A stretch of 64,000 nucleotides of DNA from Escherichia coli (GTDB lineage Bacteria > Pseudomonadota > Gammaproteobacteria > Enterobacterales > Enterobacteriaceae). The translations under genes were made by a program, and so were the position numbers. This document shows, one piece after another, positions 10,461-50,303 of the stretch (position 1 is the first letter of the stretch; each line of letters begins with the position of its first letter). Under the pieces are notes generated by a model, which was not told the DNA's origin, made no database searches, and saw only the letters and a list, made by a program, of their open reading frames with translations. The DNA is taken from the NCBI RefSeq assembly GCF_003018255.1, contig NZ_CP027440.1. One strand, 5' to 3'.

Positions 10461-12430
<1,970 letters not shown>

Positions 12431-13268: not shown

Positions 13269-15710
13269 TTAATACAGGTTCCGCCACTGATCATCTTCCT
13301 GCAAACGCTGGTTCCGATAGAAGATACGCAGGCCTGCTCCTGACGGAATACTGCCTCCGCGAAGGAGTAAATCGACCTCTTTCTCGCTGCCATCAAATCC
13401 TCTGGACTTCAGCTCATACACGAGCTGCAGTCGCTGATGGTCTGTAATTCGCTGTTTGTAGTCTTTACGCCGTTTCGGTTTCACCAGGCGTAACCTTGCA
13501 GCCAGTTCCCGGCGCTCTTTTTTGCTCATACTGTGCAGGTAATCGTGCAACTCCTTGTCATCCATGCGGGTAATGTCCGTTCTGGTATCCCCATCAGCTG
13601 ATTTGTCTTTCCCTTGTTGGTTCAAATTTTCAGCAAGGGGACAGTTATTGCCACGAGTCCAAGGGGCGCAAGCGCCCTGGTCGGCTGCCGCCTCCTGAAC
13701 GTCAACGGCCTTACGAACCATTTTCCACTTCACTGCATGAGTGCAGATCTTGCCCTCTGCAATGGGTGACCAGATGCCATAAATACGAATACCGTGATCA
13801 CCATAGGCGGTCGGCTCTTCGTTGATTTCATAAGCGGTTCTGATCAAGTGATATTTGCGGGGAACCAGTACGCCGCCCTGCTTCATAATGTAGGTGGCAA
13901 AACAGCCAGCATCAGCAGCAGCCAGAATGGCATCAAGGCGCGGGTTATCCAGTACCGACGCACCTGCTTTTTTGTCACCCTGTTGCCTTGCCGCCTGACC
14001 AGCCAGCAATCGCAGTTCACGGTAAGCCTGACGCCCCGGAATGCCAAAGAAGCGGAATTGCTGAACACGATGCAGAGACGCCCAGGCATTAACGTATTCA
14101 GCATTATCACGCAGGGATTTACCCGTTTCCTTGCTGATCTCGCCAGCCAGACCACGCCCGTCAATGTTCTTACTGATGTATTTCGCGATGTAGCTTGTTG
14201 GCGTACCTTTGCGCGGGTTTATCAGCTCAGACTTAAAGCGTGGCCCCGTGTTATTACCCAGCTCCTCGCGGTCTTCACGAATGGCAAACTTACGCAGCAA
14301 AGCAGTAATGGCGCGGCGATCTTTTTTGCGCATGAAACACAACAGGTGCCAGTGAACTGTGCCGTCATGATGCGGCTCAGCCACCCGCACGCCATACCAG
14401 CGCAACCCGGTTTTGTGCATAGCCTTACGAAATGCAGCAAACATGCCGACCAGATAATCGCTGCTTTGTCTTACCGTCGCGTTTGTCCAGGTCGGGTTTG
14501 GTCTGCCGTTATTGAGCGTGGAATGGAAACGCGACGGACAGGTGATGGTGTAGAAAACGGCACAGTCACTGCGCATTTCCGCGATAAGCTCCAGACCTTT
14601 AACACAGGCCATCATCTCATTGCGGCGATGCGCCGGGTTGCTGCTGCTGGCCTTTACCACATCTTCCATATCCAGCGTGTCGCCGTTTTCGTTCACCAGT
14701 TCATGAGAACGGAAAAACTCCAGCGACTTACGGCGCTGCTCACGTTTATGCATCACGGCTTCATAGCTGACATAGGGAGATGCTTTTTTGCTGACCAGGC
14801 AGACAGCACGCAACTGCTCTTCCCGCCATTCGCAGCGCATCTTCCATAATTTCCGATACCACCAGTCGGCACACAACATACGCGCCAGCGAACCCGGAAT
14901 GAGTTCATAGGGCACGGGTTTGCGACGCTTTCTTTTCCGACGAAGTTGCTCAAACGCAGGCGGGATAACATCCAGTCGCAGGGTTTCCGCTGCCACCTTT
15001 TCCCATGTCTTGCGGATTTCTTCTGGCTTAACATCATCGGTGGCGTACAAATCACCACAAGCGGCATCAAGGCACATGCTCATATGCGCAGCTACCAGGG
15101 TGGACAGGCGTTTCACCTGATCCTGACTCATTTCAGGCAGGATCAGCAGGCCGTCCAGCCCTTCATGGCTCGCCATAAAGCGAAAAGAAGTGGATAGCTG
15201 ACTGTCGCGTACATGCTCCAGCCGTTCCAGACATGGCTTAATCGTCTCACGCAAATAGCGAGAATAAGCCTTTGGCCTGCCCAGGCTGCTGAAGTATTCA
15301 ATACGTTGCATCAGCGGCTTGCTGATATGGGAAGGCTGGGCGTTAACGTCCGCCAGAATGACCATGTCCGGATTAAAACGCTGCTGCTCATGCGCCAGCT
15401 TTGCCCGGCTAATGAGCTTATCCTGCTCCATTTCGCGTTGGACAGGATCACGGGATTCATTAAAGAAATAACGCTCCCAGACCTGATCACTCAGTGCCTC
15501 GCGGCGCAGTTGTTCCTGCTCGTTATCGGCAGCGTACAGAGTGATCAGGTTTGAAAGCGCAGAAACCGGCGCAACTTCCGCCGGGTCCAGATAAGGGTTA
15601 ATGGCTTTCTTAGGTAAATTCCACGAATAACCCCCGGCAGAATTCTCAATGCTACCGGAAGTTACACTGACAAATGGATCGGCAAGACGGCCTGTGCTGA
15701 TCTCTGTCAC
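13269..15710 (-). CDS. Replication initiation endonuclease (P2/186 gpA-like)
   Basis: 813 aa; Y-x-K catalytic-tyrosine-like region (YIAKYISKN); position as in P2/186; start overlaps the upstream stop as ATGA. Confidence 0.85.
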
Positions 15711-16717
15711 TCACAGACTCCTGCATATACACTGCTGCACACCGCTTTATCATTCATGCCTGCCAGCAGGTCAAACTGCATACCGCCCCGAGTTGTTAAG
15801 GCCCAGTCCCGATAAGTTTCAATGCCATAAGCATCAACAGTTATGACTTCGATCCGTTTTTCATCACGGCGCGGATCATGCGTGGATGGAAAGAACGTTG
15901 AATTGCCACGTCTTGAACATTCCGCAACCAGTCTTTCCCACTCAGCCACTCGGCGGATTTCTTCTGGCCAGCGTTGGAAAATCTCAGCAAGTTCTGACTT
16001 GCGAGCATGAATACATGGCATACAACCGACACGACTGCATCCCTGCATATAAAGGGGGTTAGGCTTAATGCCATGACGTTTGGCAATAGCAAACACATCC
16101 TCATGCAGCCAATTAAGGATCGGACGATAAACATGCAGGCCCAGAGTATTGTCTGCATCGTCCTCCCACTCAGGCAACAATGCACGTTCCGGTGATTCCT
16201 GCCCCCGGACTCCTTGCCAGCTGATTACCTCATCGTATTCATCCAGAGCCGGATCGATTACCTGTGTACGTATTGGTTCATGTTTTAGTTCAAAAGTGCA
16301 GAAACGAGCTTTTGTTGAAGGGAAGCGACCTTTCCACATGCACAAATCAAGAAACGGAACGCCGGTTGGTTTAAGGATTTCCAGTGCCCGGTAAATACGT
16401 TCCTCAGCCTCATCTGTCGACATACCACATTCCTCAACGAGAGAAATGGGCCACTTTTCCGCAATGAATTTACGTTTCCCTTCTATCTGGCGTGTGAAAT
16501 CCGCTTTGACGCGAATAATCTTGCCCAGCTTTGATTCCAGATAATCCAGATATTCTATTGTCTGTGGATGTTCATGACCCGTATCGGCAAATACAGAAAT
16601 ATGCGGAACATCGTTTTCAATGGCTCTTAACCATTGAGCGAGACTATCTTTGCCACCAGAAGTAGTGATGATGTTAATGGTGCTTGAAGCAAAGCAACGC
16701 GGATCGATAGCATTCAT
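15707..16717 (-). CDS. PP-loop ATP pyrophosphatase, PAPS-reductase-like
   Basis: SGGKDS PP-loop motif near the N-terminus; C-terminal Cys clusters ([18 protein letters not shown]); ATGA-coupled to both neighbours. Confidence 0.75.
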
Positions 16718-17562
16718 GCGCGTACCTCAACGGTACGGTCAGAGCCGCTGGCAAAATCGACACCAAACCACCCAGCTGATTTGGTGGCAATGATTTCTGT
16801 TGCAGATTTACTCTCGCCAGCTGACACGCCAATGCTGCGTTTTGACTTGATGTAGTGGTGAGTGAAATTGCGATACAGCGAACGGATCAGGGATGTGTCA
16901 CTGTTAGAAACAATGACCGGATGACCTTCAGATGATCGATGTTCAAGAACGGATGCCAGGTGATACTGGTCATCTTCAGTGAAGCCATCAGTGTGATAGC
17001 CGGAAAACGTACCGTCATAAGGCGGATCGCAATATACCACATCCCCCACCTTCAACATCGCCAGCGTTTCATCAAAGCTGGCGCAGATAAACGTTGCCCG
17101 CTGGGCTTTCTCTGCAAATGCGCGAATTTCTTTTTCAGGGAAATACGGATTTTTATAATTACCGTAGGGAATGTTGAAATACCCGCTCTTGTTATAGCGA
17201 CATAGCCCACGGTAACCATGACGATTGAGATACAGAAAATATACCGCTTTCATGAAATCAGTAATTTCAGTGGAGTAATTAAACTCCTGCCTTATGTTGT
17301 AATAAGCCACCTCTCTGTTTGCTTCCTCAAATAAAGCTCTGGCACGAGATATAAACGCCTCACAATCAGCAGCAACCTTTTTATAGAGGTTGATTAAATC
17401 AGGATTAATATCCGCAACCAGATAGCTGGGGTAATCCGTCTCCATCATCACAGCACAAGAACCCGCGAAAGGTTCAACCAGTCGCGGGCCAGCAGGAAGG
17501 TATTTTTTCAGTTCGGACATAATGGCGGTTTTATTACCCGCCCATTTCAGGATGGTGCTCAT
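16714..17562 (-). CDS. dam: DNA adenine methyltransferase (Dam-like, N6-adenine)
   Basis: DPPY catalytic motif and an N-terminal SAM-binding region (FAGSCAV); start at [11 protein letters not shown] overlaps the upstream stop. Confidence 0.85.
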
Positions 17563-17861
17563 ACAGCACCTCCTGCAATAACATATCCTAAAGCTTCTAA
17601 TGGGGTTAATGAGCGAATTGATAGCATCACCCATTGTTCTGAAACTGCCATGACGTCATTAACCGGAAGCACATGAGAGATAACCGCGGCCCATTCCCTA
17701 CCCGTAAATACGCCATGCTTCCATTCGCAAAGAGAAAGAACATCACCAACTTTATAGCCACGATCGTCTTTACGAAGTTCAGCCGTCTTTTGACCTGCAA
17801 CCACAGCGTTGAAATACTTAGGTGCAATTTTTAATTGATGGATACGCACAGCCCCTGTCAT
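17559..17861 (-). CDS. ASCH/DUF3850-like small protein
   Basis: About 100 aa from [44 protein letters not shown] overlap with the TraR-like gene. Confidence 0.55.
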
Positions 17862-18085
17862 ACAGCACCTCCGTTGTAATGTTTGCCTTTCAGCTCTGCG
17901 ATTTCCTGACAGGTAATGCAAAGCTGCACTCCTGGAATGGCGCGGCGGCGTGCTGGCGGAATTGGCGCTTCACATTCAATGCAAAGCACGCGAGACACGC
18001 CCGGTGTTTTGGCACGGGCAGCACGGATATGGCGCTGGCGTTCTTCTTCAACGCGCTGCTGTACGAGATCCATTGCATCAGCCAT
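17858..18085 (-). CDS. TraR/DksA-family C4 zinc-finger protein
   Basis: 75 aa with CIECEAPIP...CITCQ four-cysteine finger. Confidence 0.75.
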
Positions 18086-18324
18086 TAGTGGATCTCCTGC
18101 GCTTCGTTCTGGATTGCTTCAGCGGTCACACGCAGCAGTTCTGCCGCTTCGACGTGGTTTAGCTGGCGGGATGTGATATGACACGCAAGACTATCAAGGC
18201 GGGCAGCCATTGCTTCAGCCCTTGCCCGGCGTTCTTCCAGACGAGCCTCTGTCAGTAAAATATTAAGCCCTGCGTCATCCGGTCCGGTTTTAGTCGTGAG
18301 GGTTTCAATATTACGCATAATCAA
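18085..18324 (-). CDS. Hypothetical phage early protein
   Basis: 79 aa ORF in the early operon; no recognisable motif. Confidence 0.45.
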   Translation of the reverse strand: MIMRNIETLTTKTGPDDAGLNILLTEARLEERRARAEAMAARLDSLACHITSRQLNHVEAAELLRVTAEAIQNEAQEIH

Positions 18325-18385
18325 TTCTCCTGAATTTAGATAAAGGGATGCCCGGCGGGTTTACGCCATTAATTTCATTAGCTGG

Positions 18386-18727
18386 TTAATTCGGCATGGT
18401 TAGCCGTCTGGGAAATAAGCTCACCACTGCACGAAAATGATTCATTGCTTTAATCAACTCCCGCTTTTCGTCAGTGGTCAGCTCATTAATGCTGATGCTA
18501 TGACGTTCAGCTGGAATTTTTGCCATAAAGAATATGGCAGCCAGTGCCCGTTTATTTTGTTCGCTATTGATATCCCGTGGATCACGCATATCTTTAATAA
18601 ACCGCTCAAGCTCTGACTCAATATTCAGGCCAAAAACTTTCGCCCTTAACTCCGCAATGTGATTAAGTCCATTCAGGCGTTCACCGGGGCTTAATGGAAC
18701 AGTCGCCGCAGCGCCATTAATTGCCAT
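18386..18727 (-). CDS. Hypothetical phage early protein
   Basis: 113 aa ORF co-directional with the early operon. Confidence 0.45.
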   Translation of the reverse strand: MAINGAAATVPLSPGERLNGLNHIAELRAKVFGLNIESELERFIKDMRDPRDINSEQNKRALAAIFFMAKIPAERHSISINELTTDEKRELIKAMNHFRAVVSLFPRRLTMPN

Positions 18728-18749
18728 AATTCATATCCCCAAAACGCAA

Positions 18750-18974
18750 CTATCGTTCTTTGTTCTTACGGTAACGTTCAAGAGGAGATACATTTTTTCG
18801 TATCGTCTCTTTAACCTGCTCTCCCCGTAAAAACGTCCCATCCTTTAGCGTGAAAAAGTAACTGCCATCGCCCGACAACGACGGATAACAACAGAGCAAA
18901 TCATCTTCAGGTACTGAATAACTCTCCCCTCTGTAACGAAACTGATAAACCACTTCACTTTCCGCTGCATACAT
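18750..18974 (-). CDS. Hypothetical small phage protein
   Basis: 74 aa ORF; overlaps the next ORF in another frame, so only one may be real. Confidence 0.3.
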   Translation of the reverse strand: MYAAESEVVYQFRYRGESYSVPEDDLLCCYPSLSGDGSYFFTLKDGTFLRGEQVKETIRKNVSPLERYRKNKER

Positions 18975-19141
18975 TTTGACTTTCTCCGTTTCCCCGTGGT
19001 CAATTCAGACAGCAATTCATCTTGTGAACGGCACGGATGCCAGCGTTTACCATCCTTACCCATGATCCAGCCGTGACCGTAGTGCATTGCCGGGCTTTGT
19101 TTTACCAGCAGCGATGCAAATGATGGTTCTTTCGTCAGCAT
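18845..19141 (-). CDS. Hypothetical small phage protein in the fil/dhr position
   Basis: Start MLTKEPS lies just after the CII stop; basic C-terminus. Confidence 0.3.
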   Translation of the reverse strand: MLTKEPSFASLLVKQSPAMHYGHGWIMGKDGKRWHPCRSQDELLSELTTGKRRKSKCMQRKVKWFISFVTEGRVIQYLKMICSVVIRRCRAMAVTFSR

Positions 19142-19148
19142 AAGCACC

Positions 19149-19658
19149 TCACAGCAAACCGAATGAAGCACCGAGGCCAGTCACGGTATCAACTGCACTC
19201 GCCATCGCAGGATTAGCCTGTAAACGGGCCTGCAATGAAACAGCCGCCAGCGCCATCAGTCGTGTTACAGAGTTAATGCTGCTGATAGCATCACGACGAC
19301 CTGCACTGGTTTTTACATCGCCAGATACCGCACCTGCCGCGACACGTCCTATCTCTGCAGTTGCACTCATGACGTAATGCGGCAGTTTCTCTTTTGCTAC
19401 CTCATTAATCGGTACACATGGCAGGCAGTGAATCTGTGCCAGAAAACCATCTACCAGCGTTGAATCTTCAGTCAGATCGGTAAGCAACCAAATTTCTGGT
19501 GCGGTTAATAAATGAGGTTGAGCTGGGTTCAGTTTGTTCCGCAGAATCTGCACATTCATGCCTGCACGTTCTGCCAGTTGCACCAGATTGTGGCGCAGTG
19601 CGAATGCACGACAGGCTTCATCAAAATGTGGATGTTTGGAAACTTGGTAATCAAACAT
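19149..19658 (-). CDS. CII-like transcriptional activator (phage 186 type)
   Basis: [19 protein letters not shown]... resembles the 186 CII N-terminus as I recall it; about 169 aa from the internal Met. Confidence 0.8.
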
Positions 19659-19926: not shown

Positions 19927-20069
19927 AAGGCAACATTCCTTCTAGATATGGCTTGTGGCGAGCCGTTGTTTGTCGTGATTAGTAGTGAAGGCTCCAAAAG
20001 AACACTTCTGGTTCAACTTTAAGATCTCTTTTGGAATCTGTCAACGAATTTTGGATTTCTTTGGAGGAC
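19927..20069. promoter_or_regulatory. Lysis-lysogeny switch region (pR/pL-like)
   Basis: Intergenic region between divergent apl and cI genes; inferred from 186 architecture, no promoter elements mapped. Confidence 0.4.
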
Positions 20070-20641
20070 TTGTGGATTTCAATAGCGGCGGTAAGAAAGC
20101 CATAGAACGTTTAGTTGAAGCATATGGGTTCGGTACCCGTCAGGCTCTCTGTGATCATTTAGGTGTTTCTAAGAGCACCATGGCAACGCGCTATATGCGT
20201 GATATTTTTCCAGCAGATTGGGTAATCCAGTGCGCCCTTGAAACGGGCACCTCGCTTAATTGGCTAACAACAGGGCATGGTTCAAAGCAAGCATCAGCAA
20301 ATACAAATACTATGGAAGTTGCTAAATATGTATTATCTGATGGGGCCTTGTGTGAAGACGGTTTTTATATTTTCGATAGGGAATTTCTACCGTCGGCATT
20401 CAAGAATATTTTTGCAATCACAGATAATAATTCTGAATTTGTTTGTGATAAGGAATTTGATGATATACGTGATGGTAAATGGGTAATAAGTATTGATGGC
20501 GAAATAACGATCCGTGACATTACTCGTTTACCCGGTGGAAGAATCTTCGTCGAGGGTGGAAACAGAGCCTTCGAATGCAAGATAGAAGACATTGAAATAA
20601 TTGGTAAAATTATAAGTTTAACAGTCAAGTATGTTAAATAG
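19985..20641 (+). CDS. CI-type immunity repressor (186 family)
   Basis: HTH region ([24 protein letters not shown]) plus C-terminal domain; ORF start is probably an over-call, true start likely near the GTG at about 20070. Confidence 0.75.
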
Positions 20642-20657
20642 TACCGGGAGGAAAACT

Positions 20658-20849
20658 ATGCTTGGTAAGGTATTTTTTGTGGTTTTGTCATGTTCTTTGT
20701 TATTAAACCCACTAACTACCTATGCTAGAAATTATCCCTGTTCAGGGAAAAAGGGAGGTGTTTCTCACTGTACCTCAGATGGCAAATTTGTTTGCAATGA
20801 TGGAACTATTAGTAAATCCAAAAAAATCTGTACTAAAAACTCACGATAA
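20658..20849 (+). CDS. Small secreted cysteine-rich protein (moron)
   Basis: 63 aa with signal peptide [23 protein letters not shown] and a mature part with six Cys; AT-rich; sits between cI and int. Confidence 0.5.
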
Positions 20850-21037
20850 CTTTTGCTTTTATATCTGCGCCTAAAATAAAAATGAGCCGCAGGTTAACCG
20901 CAAAAATTACATGCTCACATAGCAAAAAGAATAGCCAACTTAATTATGGCTTCAGTGAGATGTATGGTCGTAGGATTTCATACATTGACACTGGTTATAC
21001 ATACAGTGAAAATGCTCTCTACTGGAGGGCATTTTTT

Positions 21038-22081
21038 ATGGCAGTACGAAAACTAACCACAGGGAAATGGCTTTGCGAATGTTACCCCGCCGGACGCAGC
21101 GGGCGTCGCGTGCGTAAACAGTTCGCTACCAAAGGCGAAGCATTAGCTTTTGAGCGTCACACGATGGAGGAGGCAGAAGCTAAGCCTTGGCTTGGTGAAT
21201 CGGTAGACCGTCGAACTCTACAGGATATCGTTGAACTCTGGTTCAAACTGCACGGCAAATCCCTGACCGCTGGCGAGCATGTTTACGACAAGTTGATACT
21301 GATGGTCGATGCTCTCGGAAATCCCCTCGCCACCGATCTAACATCCAAAATGTTCGCGCACTATCGCGATAAGCGCCTGACGGGTGAAATCTACTTCAGC
21401 GAAAAATGGAAGAAAGGAGCCAGCCCGGTAACTATCAATCTGGAGCAAAGCTATCTGAGTGGGGTCTTTAGCGAGTTAGCCCGACTCGGTGAATGGACAG
21501 CACCAAATCCACTGGAGAACATGCGTAAATTCACCATTGCCGAAAAAGAAATGGCCTGGCTGACACATGAACAAATCACAGAGCTTCTGTTCGACTGTCA
21601 ACGCCAAAGCCCCCTGCTCGCTCTTGTCGTCAAAATCTGCTTGAGCACCGGAGCACGTTGGCGCGAAGCTGTGAACCTGACACGTTCTCAGGTCACGAAA
21701 TACCGAATCACATTTGTCAGAACTAAGGGCAAAAAAAACCGCAGCATTCCGATCAGCAAAGAGCTGTATGAGGAAATTGTTGCCCTAGACGGCTTCAAAT
21801 TATTTACTGACTGCTACTTCCAGTTTTTAGCCGTGATGGATAGAACCTCGATCGTACTACCACGCGGGCAACTTACCCACGTTCTACGCCATACGTTCGC
21901 AGCACATTTTATGATGTCCGGCGGGAACATTCTTGCTTTGCAAAAAATCCTGGGCCACCACGATATAAAAATGACTATGCGCTATGCACATCTTGCCCCT
22001 GATCACCTTGAAACAGCACTGCGTTTCAATCCATTAGCCACACTTTCCACTAAAGCAACGAACCTTGAAGCAAACAGCTAA
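21038..22081 (+). CDS. int: Tyrosine integrase (P2/186 family)
   Basis: C-terminal catalytic region HVLRHTFA...MRYAHL; start taken at MAVRKLTTGKW (347 aa). Confidence 0.9.
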   Translation: MAVRKLTTGKWLCECYPAGRSGRRVRKQFATKGEALAFERHTMEEAEAKPWLGESVDRRTLQDIVELWFKLHGKSLTAGEHVYDKLILMVDALGNPLATDLTSKMFAHYRDKRLTGEIYFSEKWKKGASPVTINLEQSYLSGVFSELARLGEWTAPNPLENMRKFTIAEKEMAWLTHEQITELLFDCQRQSPLLALVVKICLSTGARWREAVNLTRSQVTKYRITFVRTKGKKNRSIPISKELYEEIVALDGFKLFTDCYFQFLAVMDRTSIVLPRGQLTHVLRHTFAAHFMMSGGNILALQKILGHHDIKMTMRYAHLAPDHLETALRFNPLATLSTKATNLEANS

Positions 22082-22709: not shown

Positions 22710-23699
22710 CCCATTTACATAAATGGCAATAAAGTTGAGCTATACGGCAAGATGGTTGGTGAGCGAATTCTGACCGACCGTGAAAATGGTGAAAAAGGCG
22801 ATAATTCTCAAGATACCTCTTATGCCCGTGTAGGCGTGAAAGGTGAAACTCAGATCAACCCTGAACTGACTGGTTACGGTCAGTTTGAACTAGACCTGGA
22901 AGCATCAAACAGACACAACCCTGACCAAACTCGTTTGGCATATGCTGGTTTGAGTTACAAAGATTTTGGTTCATTCGACTACGGTCGTAATGTCGGTGTC
23001 GCGTATGATGCAGAAGCATTTACTGATATGTTTGTTGAGTGGGGCGGTGACTCATGGGCTGGTACTGACCTGTTCATGACCAACCGTACCAACGGTGTTG
23101 CAACCTATCGTAACACAGATTTCTTTGGCATGGTTGAAGGTCTAAATTTTGCTCTGCAATATCAGGGTAAAAATGAAGGTACAGGCAACTACAAAGCAAA
23201 TGGCGATGGCCATGGTTTATCTGCAACTTACACTATTGACGGTTTCTCATTTGCTGGTGCTTATGCAAACTCTGACCGTACTGATTGGCAGTCTGGTGAT
23301 GGTAAAGGCGAAAGAGCCGAAGTTTGGGCGTTGTCAACAAAATATGACGCTAACAATGTCTATGCTGCTGTGATGTACGGTGAATCTCACAACATGAATT
23401 CCGACGACGGTGATGTTGTGAACAAAACACAAAACTTCGAAGCTGTTCTGCAATATCAGTTCGACTTTGGTCTGCGTCCATCCATCGGTTACTCCTATTC
23501 TAAAGCACTGGACGTAGCAGGTTACAAAGATTCTGATCGTCTGAACTATATTGAAATCGGTACCTGGTATTACTTCAATAAGAATATGAACGTATATACC
23601 GCTTATCAGATCAACCTGCTTGATAAGAGTGATTATGTTCTCGCTCATGGACTGAACACCGACGACCAACTGGCAGTTGGTATCGTCTACCAGTTCTAA
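22710..23699 (+). pseudogene. General porin gene (OmpC/OmpF/OmpS family), 5'-truncated
   Basis: Reading frame aligns to OmpC from about mature residue 3 onward (PIYINGNKVELYGK, then the C-terminal AVGIVYQF), but the signal peptide and promoter are absent and an in-frame stop lies at about 22707. Position upstream of hchA matches yedS in K-12. Confidence 0.7.
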
Positions 23700-24294: not shown

Positions 24295-25146
24295 ATGACT
24301 GTTCAAACAAGTAAAAACCCGCAGGTCGATATTGCTGAAGATAATGCATTCTTCCCTTCAGAATATTCGCTTAGCCAATATACCAGTCCCGTCTCTGATC
24401 TTGATGGTGTGGACTATCCAAAACCGTATCGCGGTAAACATAAAATTCTGGTGATCGCCGCGGACGAACGTTATTTGCCGACCGATAACGGAAAACTGTT
24501 CTCGACCGGTAACCATCCGATTGAAACGTTGCTGCCGTTGTATCATCTCCACGCTGCAGGTTTCGAATTCGAAGTGGCGACCATTTCCGGTCTGATGACC
24601 AAGTTTGAATACTGGGCTATGCCACACAAAGATGAAAAAGTAATGCCATTCTTTGAGCAGCATAAATCGTTGTTCCGCAATCCGAAGAAACTCGCGGATG
24701 TTGTCGCCAGCCTCAACGCTGATAGCGAATATGCAGCAATCTTTGTTCCTGGTGGTCATGGCGCACTTATTGGTTTACCTGAAAGCCAGGACGTAGCTGC
24801 CGCTTTACAGTGGGCAATCAAAAATGACCGTTTTGTTATCTCCCTTTGCCACGGCCCGGCGGCTTTTCTGGCGCTTCGCCACGGCGATAACCCACTGAAT
24901 GGTTATTCCATTTGCGCATTCCCAGACGCCGCAGACAAACAAACGCCAGAGATAGGCTATATGCCGGGTCATCTCACCTGGTACTTCGGCGAAGAGCTGA
25001 AGAAAATGGGCATGAACATTATTAATGACGACATCACCGGGCGAGTACATAAGGACCGTAAAGTTCTCACCGGCGACAGTCCTTTCGCAGCGAATGCGTT
25101 GGGTAAACTGGCGGCGCAGGAAATGCTGGCAGCTTACGCGGGTTAA
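24295..25146 (+). CDS. hchA: Hsp31 glyoxalase III / protein deglycase
   Basis: 283 aa; DJ-1/PfpI-like sequence recognised as HchA. Confidence 0.9.
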   Translation: MTVQTSKNPQVDIAEDNAFFPSEYSLSQYTSPVSDLDGVDYPKPYRGKHKILVIAADERYLPTDNGKLFSTGNHPIETLLPLYHLHAAGFEFEVATISGLMTKFEYWAMPHKDEKVMPFFEQHKSLFRNPKKLADVVASLNADSEYAAIFVPGGHGALIGLPESQDVAAALQWAIKNDRFVISLCHGPAAFLALRHGDNPLNGYSICAFPDAADKQTPEIGYMPGHLTWYFGEELKKMGMNIINDDITGRVHKDRKVLTGDSPFAANALGKLAAQEMLAAYAG

Positions 25147-31154: not shown

Positions 31155-31244
31155 TGGCGGAGAGAGGGGGATTTGAACCCCCGGTAGAGTTGCCCCTACT
31201 CCGGTTTTCGAGACCGGTCCGTTCAGCCGCTCCGGCATCTCTCC
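31155..31244 (-). tRNA. serU: tRNA-Ser (anticodon CGA)
   Basis: Minus strand reads GGAGAGATGCCGGAGCGGCTGAACGGACCGGTCTCGAAAACCGG...CTCTCCGCCA with a long variable arm. Confidence 0.9.
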
Positions 31245-31337
31245 GTTCAGATGGTTGCCATGATGCCAGGAAATTTGGCATTTTAACAGTCCCTGTCCGT
31301 GCAATTTTGTTCAAGTGACGAGTTTGCGAGCAAAACG

Positions 31338-32135
31338 ATGATTAAGTGGCCCTGGAAAGTACAAGAATCAGCACATCAAACTGCCCTTCCCTGGCAGGAA
31401 GCACTATCGATCCCCCTTTTAACGTGTCTGACGGAACAGGAACAAAGCAAATTAGTCACTCTTGCCGAACGTTTTTTACAGCAAAAGCGGCTTGTTCCTT
31501 TACAGGGCTTTGAACTGGATTCATTAAGAAGCTGCCGGATAGCACTTCTATTTTGCCTGCCCGTTCTGGAGTTAGGACTGGAATGGCTGGATGGTTTTCA
31601 TGAAGTCTTAATTTATCCTGCGCCATTTGTGGTCGATGATGAATGGGAAGACGATATCGGTCTGGTGCATAACCAACGTATTGTTCAGTCAGGTCAGAGC
31701 TGGCAGCAAGGGCCTATCGTTTTGAACTGGTTGGATATACAAGATTCTTTTGATGCTTCTGGTTTTAACCTGATTATTCATGAAGTCGCTCATAAGCTGG
31801 ACACCCGTAACGGCGATCGCGCCAGCGGAGTTCCCTTTATTCCGTTGCGTGAGGTTGCTGGCTGGGAACACGATCTTCATGCTGCAATGAACAACATTCA
31901 GGAAGAAATCGAATTGGTTGGCGAGAATGCGGCGAGCATTGATGCTTATGCTGCCAGTGATCCTGCTGAATGTTTTGCCGTACTTTCTGAATATTTCTTT
32001 AGCGCCCCAGAACTTTTTGCTCCACGTTTCCCTTCATTGTGGCAACGTTTCTGCCAATTTTATCAACAAGATCCTTTGCAGAGACTGCATCACGCTAATG
32101 ATACAGACTCGTTTTCGGCGACGAATGTTCATTAA
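31338..32135 (+). CDS. mtfA: Mlc titration factor A
   Basis: Start MIKWPWK; HEXXH-type motif (HEVAHKLD). Confidence 0.9.
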
Positions 32136-32235
32136 TTAACAACTTTGCAGATTAATTAACCAATTGAAATGACTTATGAAATTTAGTGTTGACAGACAAA
32201 GTACCGCTAAGTAATATGCGCCCCGTTCACACGAT

Positions 32236-32311
32236 TCCTCTGTAGTTCAGTCGGTAGAACGGCGGACTGTTAATCCGTATGTCACTGGTTCGAGTCCAGT
32301 CAGAGGAGCCA
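32236..32311 (+). tRNA. asnT: tRNA-Asn (GUU)
   Basis: TCCTCTGTAGTTCAGTCGGTAGAACGGCGGACTGTTAATCCG...AGGAGCCA. Confidence 0.95.
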
Positions 32312-32623
32312 AATTCTAAAAATTCGCTTTTTAGCGCAATGTCACTGACCTTAGTTGAGCATTGCTTTTTAACGGATAGCGGGTTTTTGACATCTTAAGC
32401 GCCCTCGACCTTTATGGTTGAGGGCGTTTTGCTATGAACGCCATCACCATTTTCCCCTCGATTACAAAACTTGAGTAATTCAGTAGTCTCCCCTCTTGCA
32501 ACTCACACCCAAAACTGCTTAACGAAAAGTTATTAATTTTCAATCATATTGCTATCAGGATTTACATTTTTTCGCTGTGCTAGAAAGGGCGCATTTATGT
32601 TAGCTCGTTCAGGGAAGGTAAGC

Positions 32624-48771: not shown

Positions 48772-48929
48772 ACCTTAAGTGCAGCCCTGGTGCCTGTCGG
48801 CACTGCGATGAAAGAACTAAATGATGCCGCCATACCCTGATCCTTTCAGGGTGGTAGGGGTATAAAGACGCGCCTGTACTCTACTGGACGCTTCCGGGCA
48901 ACCCACTTCCCACCGAAGTTGTTGGTAAT

Positions 48930-49075
48930 GACTGACTGGCTGGTCTTCTGGCTTAGCGTCATCCTCTCCCGACCTTCCCAATCTCGCGATCAGTGGCATT
49001 TTCGGGTTTGTCAGCATTACAGCAGCGGGGGCTGCGAGGGATTTTCACCCTCTTCCCAGGCACAAATGTGCCACA
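48930..49075 (-). promoter_or_regulatory. Cobalamin (adenosylcobalamin) riboswitch aptamer, cbi-leader type
   Basis: Minus strand reads GGGAAGAGGGTGAAAATCCCTCGCAGCCCCCGCTGCTGTAA...GCCACTGATCGCGAGATTGGGAAGG...AGCCAGAAGACCAGCC, matching conserved riboswitch core and B12-box consensus. Confidence 0.8.
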
Positions 49076-49186
49076 CCTGTCAGCGTATGTTATGAGCTGA
49101 TTTCACTTTTCCCATAACAGGTAAATAACGTTAATTATTCATTGCAGAGTTTATTTAAACCGTCCTCTTTTTTTGGGGCATTTACT

Positions 49187-50101: not shown

Positions 50102-50303
50102 GATAAAACCTCCCAGTTAATTTATTGTTATAGCAAAACAATTGTTTTACATTTAATCTTCACATCATCCTTGATGATTTACTGACGAGAAGCACAAAGG
50201 ACAATAACAAAAGCCTCCGTGAAGCGGGAGACTTTTTAATAAGTTCGGAAAGCAGATCACAAACAGTAAAAAAATAAACGTTTATAACTGCCAGATTATT
50301 TCG

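Follow-up and report, generated by a model that had tools for sequence, protein, structure and literature searches.

The present analysis dealt with a 64,000-nucleotide (nt) stretch of Escherichia coli DNA (hereafter the window; contig NZ_CP027440.1, assembly GCF_003018255.1), and more precisely with two prophage genes, fil and an open reading frame (ORF) of 74 amino acids (aa) that we call ORF74, which overlap in different frames. Both ORFs are likely to be coding, with ORF74 alone constraining the nucleotides that they share, and the C-terminal tail of Fil is probably a tolerated by-product of ORF74, i.e., a neutral extension. The overlap had been pointed out in a preliminary description of this DNA, which regarded the coding assignment as ambiguous: it is real and amounts to 130 nt, and the ambiguity does exist in the annotation produced by the Prokaryotic Genome Annotation Pipeline (PGAP), but comparison largely resolves it in favor of two coding ORFs, only one of which constrains the overlap. 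The locus itself is unremarkable and was catalogued before, as part of a prophage that is very common; what the analysis adds, as we see it with good confidence, is the resolution of this overlap: there are two genes, a single constrained frame, and an extension of Fil that is neutral and resulted from module exchange. The features concerned are as follows.

18845-19141, minus strand: fil (98 aa), matching Pfam Phage_186_Fil (E 3.9e-22), phrog_32377 and phrog_816
18750-18974, minus strand: ORF74 (74 aa), matching phrog_4312 (E 3.7e-53), RefSeq WP_001374083.1
18845-18974, minus strand: dual-frame overlap of 130 nt, where the 3' end of fil and the 5' end of ORF74 coincide

ORF74 is, as judged from its homologs, an independent gene of the early operon. 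It is matched over its full length by phrog_4312 and has a Shine-Dalgarno (SD) sequence of its own, GGAG, 9 nt before its ATG. A word-seeded search yielded 37 homologs of 65-76 aa, down to 53% identity, and an exhaustive profile search added further small proteins of the same length range, so that identity to the window protein extends from 80% down to 26%. Six residues are invariant in the family (F12, P31, S32, G46, R50, and E56), within the motif ..YPS..GDGSYFFTLKDG..FRGE.VKEV. Profile matches to giant repeat proteins of 853-3520 aa were discarded as spurious, being short matches to Ig-like or low-complexity repeats. The location of the homologs varied markedly among the loci gathered for comparison (L numbers below). 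In Edwardsiella prophages, the homolog stands alone and a separate fil ORF of 62 aa lies two genes upstream; in L091, it is present without a called fil; in the L101 prophage, it is found between dam and A; a P2-immunity prophage has it upstream of fil.

Constraint on the overlap was clearly unequal between the two frames, ORF74 being read in the -1 frame relative to fil. Both genes were intact in all 40 distinct haplotypes identified among the gathered loci, and these haplotypes displayed 12 variants in the overlap, nine synonymous and three non-synonymous in the ORF74 frame, versus four and eight, respectively, in the fil frame. The second codon position of ORF74 was never affected (0/12), and the five common variants were all silent in ORF74, while four of them altered Fil. 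In divergent loci, the same nucleotides encoded more conserved residues in ORF74 than in the Fil tail (28/42 versus 18/42, 27/42 versus 12/42, and 9/25 versus 3/25). The conserved core of Fil corresponds to residues 1-55, of which 40-52 are kept across divergent loci, and homology to other Fil proteins stops near residue 52-55; the tail, residues 56-98, is lineage-specific and lies on the nucleotides of ORF74. Dual coding would be recognized by conservation of both frames and by a maintained overlap length; what was found is a conserved ORF74 frame, a Fil tail that is not conserved, and an overlap of 79, 130 or 172 nt depending on the ORF74-bearing lineage, corresponding to Fil proteins of 81, 98 and 112 aa and to tails of 26, 43 and 57 codons. 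When ORF74 was recoded synonymously 20,000 times and the open run in the fil frame was scored, the median run was 43 codons, identical to the observed one, and 55% of the recodings reached at least 43 codons; no selection is needed for a long Fil tail, since the observed run is the one expected from such recodings. The fil stop common to three lineages is made of conserved ORF74 codons, CTA-AAG (L-K), read out of frame. The situation resembles that of overlapping or overprinted phage genes in general, with two long ORFs on the same strand and 130 nt in common in different frames, but differs from it in that ORF74 alone is conserved here, the other frame being a variable extension of an older gene.

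The origin of the overlap can be traced by comparison with the Felsduovirus/Elveevirus members RE2010, SEN8, and Cartapus, whose cII, fil codons 1 to about 47, DUF5347, DUF2732, TraR-like and dam genes are near-identical to those of the window. These phages have no ORF74, and their fil gene (66 aa) ends 37 nt into the DUF5347 gene, covering its start, in the same way as fil overlaps dhr by 14 nt in phage 186. As a rule, fil in these phages extends at its 3' end across the SD sequence and the start codon of the next gene. Near-identity of the window with RE2010 and Cartapus extends to about codon 47 of fil, breaks off over ORF74, and resumes at about codon 4 of DUF5347. In the alignment with RE2010, the intervening segment is a different one, with a diverged 3' end of fil, an SD sequence, ORF74 itself, and a new leader for the DUF5347 gene. 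Some complete E. coli genomes match just the 5' end of fil, and their match ends at window position 19004/19010. A module of about 290 nt bearing ORF74 would have taken the slot after fil, indicating a mosaic history rather than a special decoding event; because this module occupies the slot, the fil frame would read through the 5' half of ORF74 to the first chance stop, giving a Fil of 98 aa. The basic patch of Fil, KRRKSK here and KKRGNK in RE2010, corresponds to the purine-rich SD sequence as translated in the frame of fil. In this manner, the exchange of modules at gene junctions would create long, selectively neutral C-terminal extensions, rather than new domains or dual-coding genes.

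Some observations speak against a neutral tail and two coding genes. Third-position polymorphism of ORF74 was lower in the overlap (6/43 codons) than in the single-coding flanks (29/86; Fisher p = 0.02), a possible sign that the Fil tail is under some constraint. Whatever the sequence that encodes it, the tail is always basic and hydrophobic, with a net charge of +5 to +13, so that a function at the level of composition is conceivable. Moreover, the six genes of the block are known in this strain through their sequence. As to the first of these points, deeper comparisons gave 39-63% synonymous differences in the overlap, the population-level deficit not being repeated there; mosaic ancestry could have produced this deficit, and one close pair of loci is clearly mosaic within ORF74. 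Low synonymous variation, significant at the population level and absent from deeper comparisons, was not retained as a proof of dual coding. A functional dual-coding overlap, in which the 43-residue Fil tail, overprinted on ORF74, would have taken on a role, for example that of a basic amphipathic helix, and/or in which fil translation across the ORF74 ribosome-binding site would tune ORF74 output, seems unlikely to us. It is in line with this deficit, with the stop position common to three lineages, with the constant basic and hydrophobic character of the tails and with the AlphaFold2 drawing of residues 40-97 as one helix (predicted local distance difference test, pLDDT, 67-87). However, tail length changes with the lineage and tail sequence is poorly conserved, the observed length is the median expected from the ORF74 protein sequence alone, the basic patch is accounted for by the SD sequence as read in the other frame, the common stop is made by the conserved L-K codons of ORF74, and the Fil model is unreliable (pLDDT 67, predicted template modeling score 0.28), so poor indeed that a structure search with it was dropped. 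An elaborate version of the same idea, whereby the Fil tail targets the division inhibitor to the membrane or nucleoid, fil translation sets the Fil:ORF74 ratio, and ORF74 is the lytic-phase half of a convergent phrog_4312/phrog_26925 cassette whose prophage-expressed partner was lost here, is quite improbable.

The annotations themselves embody two other readings. In most genomes, PGAP reports the 98-aa Fil (WP_000956176.1) alone and leaves ORF74 uncalled, as if the latter were a spurious ORF in an alternative frame; in an evenly spaced sample of matches, 27 of the 29 full-length rows give just "Fil family protein", and an extra "hypothetical protein" is listed in the other two. The 98-aa form moreover has a PHROG of its own, phrog_32377. 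That Fil is the sole real gene is nevertheless highly improbable: members of the ORF74 family retain a core motif and their length down to 26% identity, overlap substitutions are mostly synonymous in its frame while the Fil tail is unconserved on the same nucleotides, ORF74 has its own GGAG SD sequence, and its stand-alone occurrence away from fil in other prophages already contradicts such a reading. Conversely, PGAP annotates strain C51 with ORF74 (WP_001374083.1) and a fil pseudogene described as incomplete and "missing C-terminus", which would mean that ORF74 alone is functional and that fil lost its true C-terminus upon insertion of the ORF74 module. Where PGAP does call ORF74, fil is made a pseudogene. 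The end of similarity to other Fil proteins at about residue 52-55 is consistent with such a loss, but we consider this reading unlikely, as the fil ORF, its ATG and its SD sequence are intact in every haplotype and in divergent ORF74-bearing loci, the Pfam model is covered over positions 1-54 of 56, the core is visibly conserved, and Fil C-termini vary in every lineage, including that of 186, where the function was shown. Finally, a programmed -1 ribosomal frameshift could join Fil to ORF74 in a fusion of about 129 aa, produced beside the separate proteins. ORF74 does lie in the -1 frame of fil, and a 129-aa Fil::ORF74 fusion (P0017, 12 members) occurs in public assemblies. Yet no X XXY YYZ slippery heptamer, strict or relaxed, was found in the fil frame of the overlap, the frame switch of P0017 occurs at a GGGG run, which suggests a mutation or faulty assembly, and ORF74 has its own SD sequence and ATG and stands alone elsewhere; frameshifting was rejected for lack of a slippery site and is extremely improbable. 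Two coding genes, with ORF74 constraining the shared nucleotides, remain the preferred reading. Besides, an in-frame deletion fusion of 122 aa, cII(1-68)::ORF74(21-74) (P0021), was observed in 19 contigs, including NCBI E. coli, and points to decaying copies of the prophage.

Fil is probably a cell-division inhibitor, by homology to Fil of phage 186, the annotation of which states that "overexpression blocks cell division". The window protein matched Phage_186_Fil (PF10893) with 78.1 bits for a cut-off of 25, over residues 5-59, and both PHROG families that it matches are labeled "cell division inhibitor". Its identity to 186 Fil is 63% over 72 residues. The gene begins with an ATG preceded by the SD sequence GAGGTG. 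In lineages devoid of ORF74, Fil is 62-75 aa long. After induction or infection, Fil would block host cell division, as 186 Fil does upon overexpression.

Concerning ORF74, AlphaFold2 predicted, with fair confidence, five beta-strands and a C-terminal helix (mean pLDDT 80.8). A Foldseek search with this model returned no significant structural neighbor, the top PDB entries being small barrels of the Sac7d/Sso7d type with a template modeling score of about 0.4. With 12 acidic and 12 basic residues, the protein is about neutral by residue count, and we tentatively assume that its role is to bind a protein of the host or of the phage. Together with the DUF5347 and DUF2732 proteins, it would belong to a set of non-essential host-interaction proteins, most likely binding a host or phage protein.

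A further indication came from the neighborhood of ORF74 homologs, which in other lineages usually have a partner. In at least six divergent lineages, a convergent gene of the phrog_26925 family, encoding about 82-91 aa, overlaps the 3' end of the homolog, as follows.

L095, 3216-3464, minus strand: phrog_26925 partner gene
L097, 2085-2333, minus strand: phrog_26925 partner gene
L099, 1204-1452, minus strand: phrog_26925 partner gene
L091, 4209-4460, minus strand: phrog_26925 partner gene
L104, 237-491, minus strand: phrog_26925 partner gene
L105, 3196-3471, minus strand: phrog_26925 partner gene
L102, 537-809, minus strand: phrog_26925 partner gene

In L105/L106, the pair formed by the ORF74-family gene and phrog_26925 lies upstream of fil, and because of this location the pair behaves as a mobile two-gene cassette. 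ORF74 occurs without this partner in the window, in Klebsiella phage 4LV2017, in L100, in the Edwardsiella prophages and in the L101 prophage, and no partner homolog was found anywhere in the window. Such an arrangement hints that ORF74 may cooperate with, or counteract, a gene whose transcription runs opposite to that of the lytic operon.

In its wider context, the locus belongs to a prophage of the 186/P2 type (Peduoviridae), and 13-22 kb of the window correspond to the end of this prophage devoted to control and replication; the block at 17559-19141 on the minus strand, six intact and tightly packed small genes between cII and dam, is most likely an accessory-gene segment of its early lytic operon. 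The operon order is cox/apl, cII, fil, ORF74, DUF5347, tR1-like site, DUF2732, TraR-like, DUF3850, dam, the 3'-phosphoadenosine 5'-phosphosulfate (PAPS)-reductase-like gene and A, and transcription would proceed leftward from a promoter next to the cI/cox switch. The remaining features are listed below.

18386-18727, minus strand: DUF5347 gene (113 aa), Pfam DUF5347 114.5 bits, E 3e-33, and phrog_602
18340-18369, minus strand: tR1-homologous sequence, by-eye alignment to the annotated tR1 of 186
18085-18318, minus strand: DUF2732 gene (77 aa), Pfam DUF2732 101.2 bits, E 3e-29
17858-18085, minus strand: TraR/DksA-type C4 zinc-finger gene (75 aa), Pfam zf-dskA_traR E 3e-11, and TIGR02419
17559-17861, minus strand: DUF3850/ASCH gene (100 aa), Pfam DUF3850 E 1e-23 and ASCH E 2e-5
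19149-19658, minus strand: cII, lysogeny-establishment regulator of the CP76 family, Pfam Phage_CP76 144.2 bits
16714-17562, minus strand: dam, D12-class adenine methylase, Pfam MethyltransfD12 254.8 bits
19723-19926, minus strand: cox/apl-like gene
19985-20641, plus strand: 186-type cI repressor
20882-22081, plus strand: integrase
15707-16717, minus strand: PAPS-reductase-like gene between dam and A, with a PAPS-reductase domain
13269-15710, minus strand: replication endonuclease A

By their matches, the six small ORFs of the block are real genes, far beyond chance. Five of the six proteins matched Pfam families above curated cut-offs (E 3e-11 to 3e-33), ORF74 having no Pfam match, and all six matched PHROG families (E 1e-30 to 5e-68); each ORF has an SD sequence 5-10 nt upstream of its start. 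The block is 99.8% identical to RefSeq E. coli prophages and 96-97% identical, at the DNA level, to Escherichia phage vB_EcoM-813R9 and Klebsiella phage 4LV2017. The location in an early lytic operon between cII and dam, put forward in the preliminary description, is borne out by family matches and gene order, and its ASCH-like and TraR-type assignments hold, with support from Pfam, TIGR02419, PDB 3IUW and TraR-RNA polymerase (RNAP) structures. Of its four unassigned ORFs, by contrast, three fall into the Pfam families Phage_186_Fil, DUF5347, and DUF2732, the two DUF families being carried by 186 and P2 as well. Homology to structural genes, which that description gave as a refuting condition, was not found. 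The description had also compared the block with the place where 186 carries fil and dhr: the position agrees and the upstream ORF of the overlapping pair is fil itself, but no dhr homolog was found. The idea that ORF74 might be a Dhr homolog, based on its position after fil and on a by-eye resemblance of motifs, was rejected, as BLASTP gave no alignment between the two proteins and hhalign, with a 15-sequence ORF74 profile against a 10-sequence Dhr profile, gave a probability of 0.6%; the position after fil is all that they have in common. Membership of the six genes in a defense system was rejected as well, since none of the proteins matched a PADLOC model (E <= 0.01). No Rfam family was found in the region, and consensus matches to internal promoters or terminators were not more frequent there than in shuffled sequence.

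Regarding gene boundaries, the cII stop is separated from the fil ATG by 7 nt, while the junctions further downstream overlap, with TAATG between the DUF2732 and TraR-like genes and ATGA both between the TraR-like and DUF3850 genes and between the DUF3850 gene and dam. Such TAATG and ATGA junctions are typical of translationally coupled phage operons, and the three junctions from the DUF2732 gene to dam are, by this arrangement, laid out for translational coupling. Two starts were considered. The mechanical ORF of the DUF2732 gene begins at TTG 18324 and PGAP uses ATG 18318; the start is corrected to 18318. For the DUF3850 gene, the mechanical ORF extends to TTG 17921, and ATG 17861 is preferred because it is used by PGAP and forms the ATGA junction with the upstream stop.

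Compared with the early lytic operon of phage 186, the window has the same gene order and strand logic, a fil gene within 7 nt after cII, a fil 3' end that overlaps the next gene, a tR1-like sequence before the DUF2732 gene, a TraR-like gene abutting the latter, and a PAPS-reductase-like gene before A. It differs from 186 in the absence of dhr, with ORF74 and the DUF5347 gene in its place, in the length of the fil overlap (130 versus 14 nt), and in the replacement of the "exonuclease subunit" and DUF5405 genes by the DUF3850 gene and dam. Phages 4LV2017 and vB_EcoM-813R9 have the same fil-ORF74 overlap as the window, but no DUF3850 gene; ORF74 is unannotated in both records, which give the 98-aa Fil or nothing at the overlap.

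The gene following ORF74, of the DUF5347 family, is labeled "replication protein GpB" in the 813R9 record. A pairwise BLASTP against P2 gpB gave E 0.002 over 58 aa. Identity with P2 gpB is unsupported, with an hhalign probability of 2.3% and no match of gpB to PF17282, the profiles being shallow enough for a distant homology to be possible. Between the DUF5347 and DUF2732 genes lies the tR1-like site, GGCGTAAACCCGCCGGGCATCCCTTTAT, which is homologous to tR1 of 186 with a weakened T tract; by its fold alone, this site was not distinguishable from shuffled sequence (z = 0.06). The DUF2732 protein shows 46% identity to its 186 counterpart (186 coordinates 24433-24666), and is also the counterpart of P2 Orf80; these 186 and P2 genes are annotated as non-essential.

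The zinc-finger protein encoded next likely reprograms host transcription through the RNAP secondary channel, by analogy with better-characterized relatives. It matched zf-dskA_traR with 43.5 bits (cut-off 24.9) and NCBIfam TIGR02419 with 65.8 bits (cut-off 59.7), and the TraR chains of the TraR-RNAP cryo-electron microscopy structures 5W1S and 6N57 matched it with E of about 3e-9. Its identity reaches 47% to P2 Orf82 and 68% to the zinc-finger protein of 186. P2 Orf82 is able to complement a dksA mutant and to compete with DksA for RNAP, and it also inhibits rrnB P1 in vitro; it is active, although more weakly, without the A8 of the DxxDxA motif (PMC9239242). In alignment with TraR, the four cysteines (CxxC...CxxC) of the window protein are matched and D3 and D6 are kept, while A8 is replaced by V, the corresponding residue being I in P2 Orf82. 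The secondary-channel mechanism is proposed because of the identity to P2 Orf82, the conservation of D3, D6 and the cysteines, and the matches to TraR structures; by extension from P2 Orf82, the TraR-like protein would bind in that channel and lower the activity of rRNA promoters. As in F-plasmid TraR, lambda Orf73, and P2 Orf82, a C4 zinc finger is combined with N-terminal D3 and D6 in this 75-aa protein, which differs from that group by its V8.

The last gene before dam encodes a DUF3850/ASCH protein with a complete DUF3850 domain (83.6 bits) and an ASCH match of 25.7 bits for a cut-off of 21.2; it is matched by PDB 3IUW (E 7.8e-10) and is 47% identical to P2 Orf91. Its predicted fold is PUA-like, through which it would bind nucleic acid. 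The DUF3850 family is enriched in phages and is described without demonstrated activity (bioRxiv 10.1101/2025.10.10.680097). Unlike P2 Orf91, the gene of which follows A, the window protein is encoded before dam, and unlike the ParB-CTPase-DUF3850 fusions, it is a stand-alone protein of 100 aa. Comparison of window positions 17559-17861 with L001, L002, L007, L094, L099, and L105 showed a variable cassette site between the TraR-like gene and dam. The site is occupied by the 100-aa DUF3850 gene here, by an exonuclease-subunit gene in both 186 and SEN8, and by a gene for a 170-aa DUF3850 protein in L099, and is empty in 813R9 and 4LV2017; RE2010 and Cartapus have no DUF3850 gene. In L105, a 222-aa DUF3850 protein is encoded in the corresponding region, without dam.

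In terms of frequency, fil was found in 1237 of 5426 complete E. coli genomes, and fil together with ORF74 in 594 of 5426 (about 11%). The outcome of this work is mostly an annotation correction, the small phage protein family phrog_4312 being systematically under-annotated because PGAP usually reports fil or ORF74 but not both, or else labels fil as a pseudogene. The host-takeover functions at stake, those of Fil and of the TraR-like protein, were already described in 186 and P2. A search of the accessible literature on 186 fil and dhr, the DUF families, and the RefSeq accessions returned nothing useful beyond the TraR-homolog paper and the ParB-DUF3850 preprint cited above.

Other observations were made outside the block. 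The closely related prophages L004-L006 have no PAPS-reductase-like gene, dam being joined directly to A, and in the 186 record translation of the equivalent ORF (orf84) through to its end is annotated as a requirement for A to be translated. An ORF of 72 aa (20631-20849, plus strand) lies between the cI and integrase genes; with its hydrophobic N-terminus, six cysteines and no Pfam match, it may be a moron whose product is secreted or lipoprotein-like. An ORF of 646 aa (10461-12401, minus strand) occupies the interval between the portal/terminase genes and replication gene A, a frequent site of lysogenic-conversion or defense morons in P2-like phages. The host flank of the prophage (22752-23699, plus strand, 31155-44703, 48921-49095, and 50162-50245) contains tRNA-Ser, four tRNA-Asn, a cobalamin riboswitch and the small RNA STnc230, together with a porin-family ORF whose N-terminus may be truncated.

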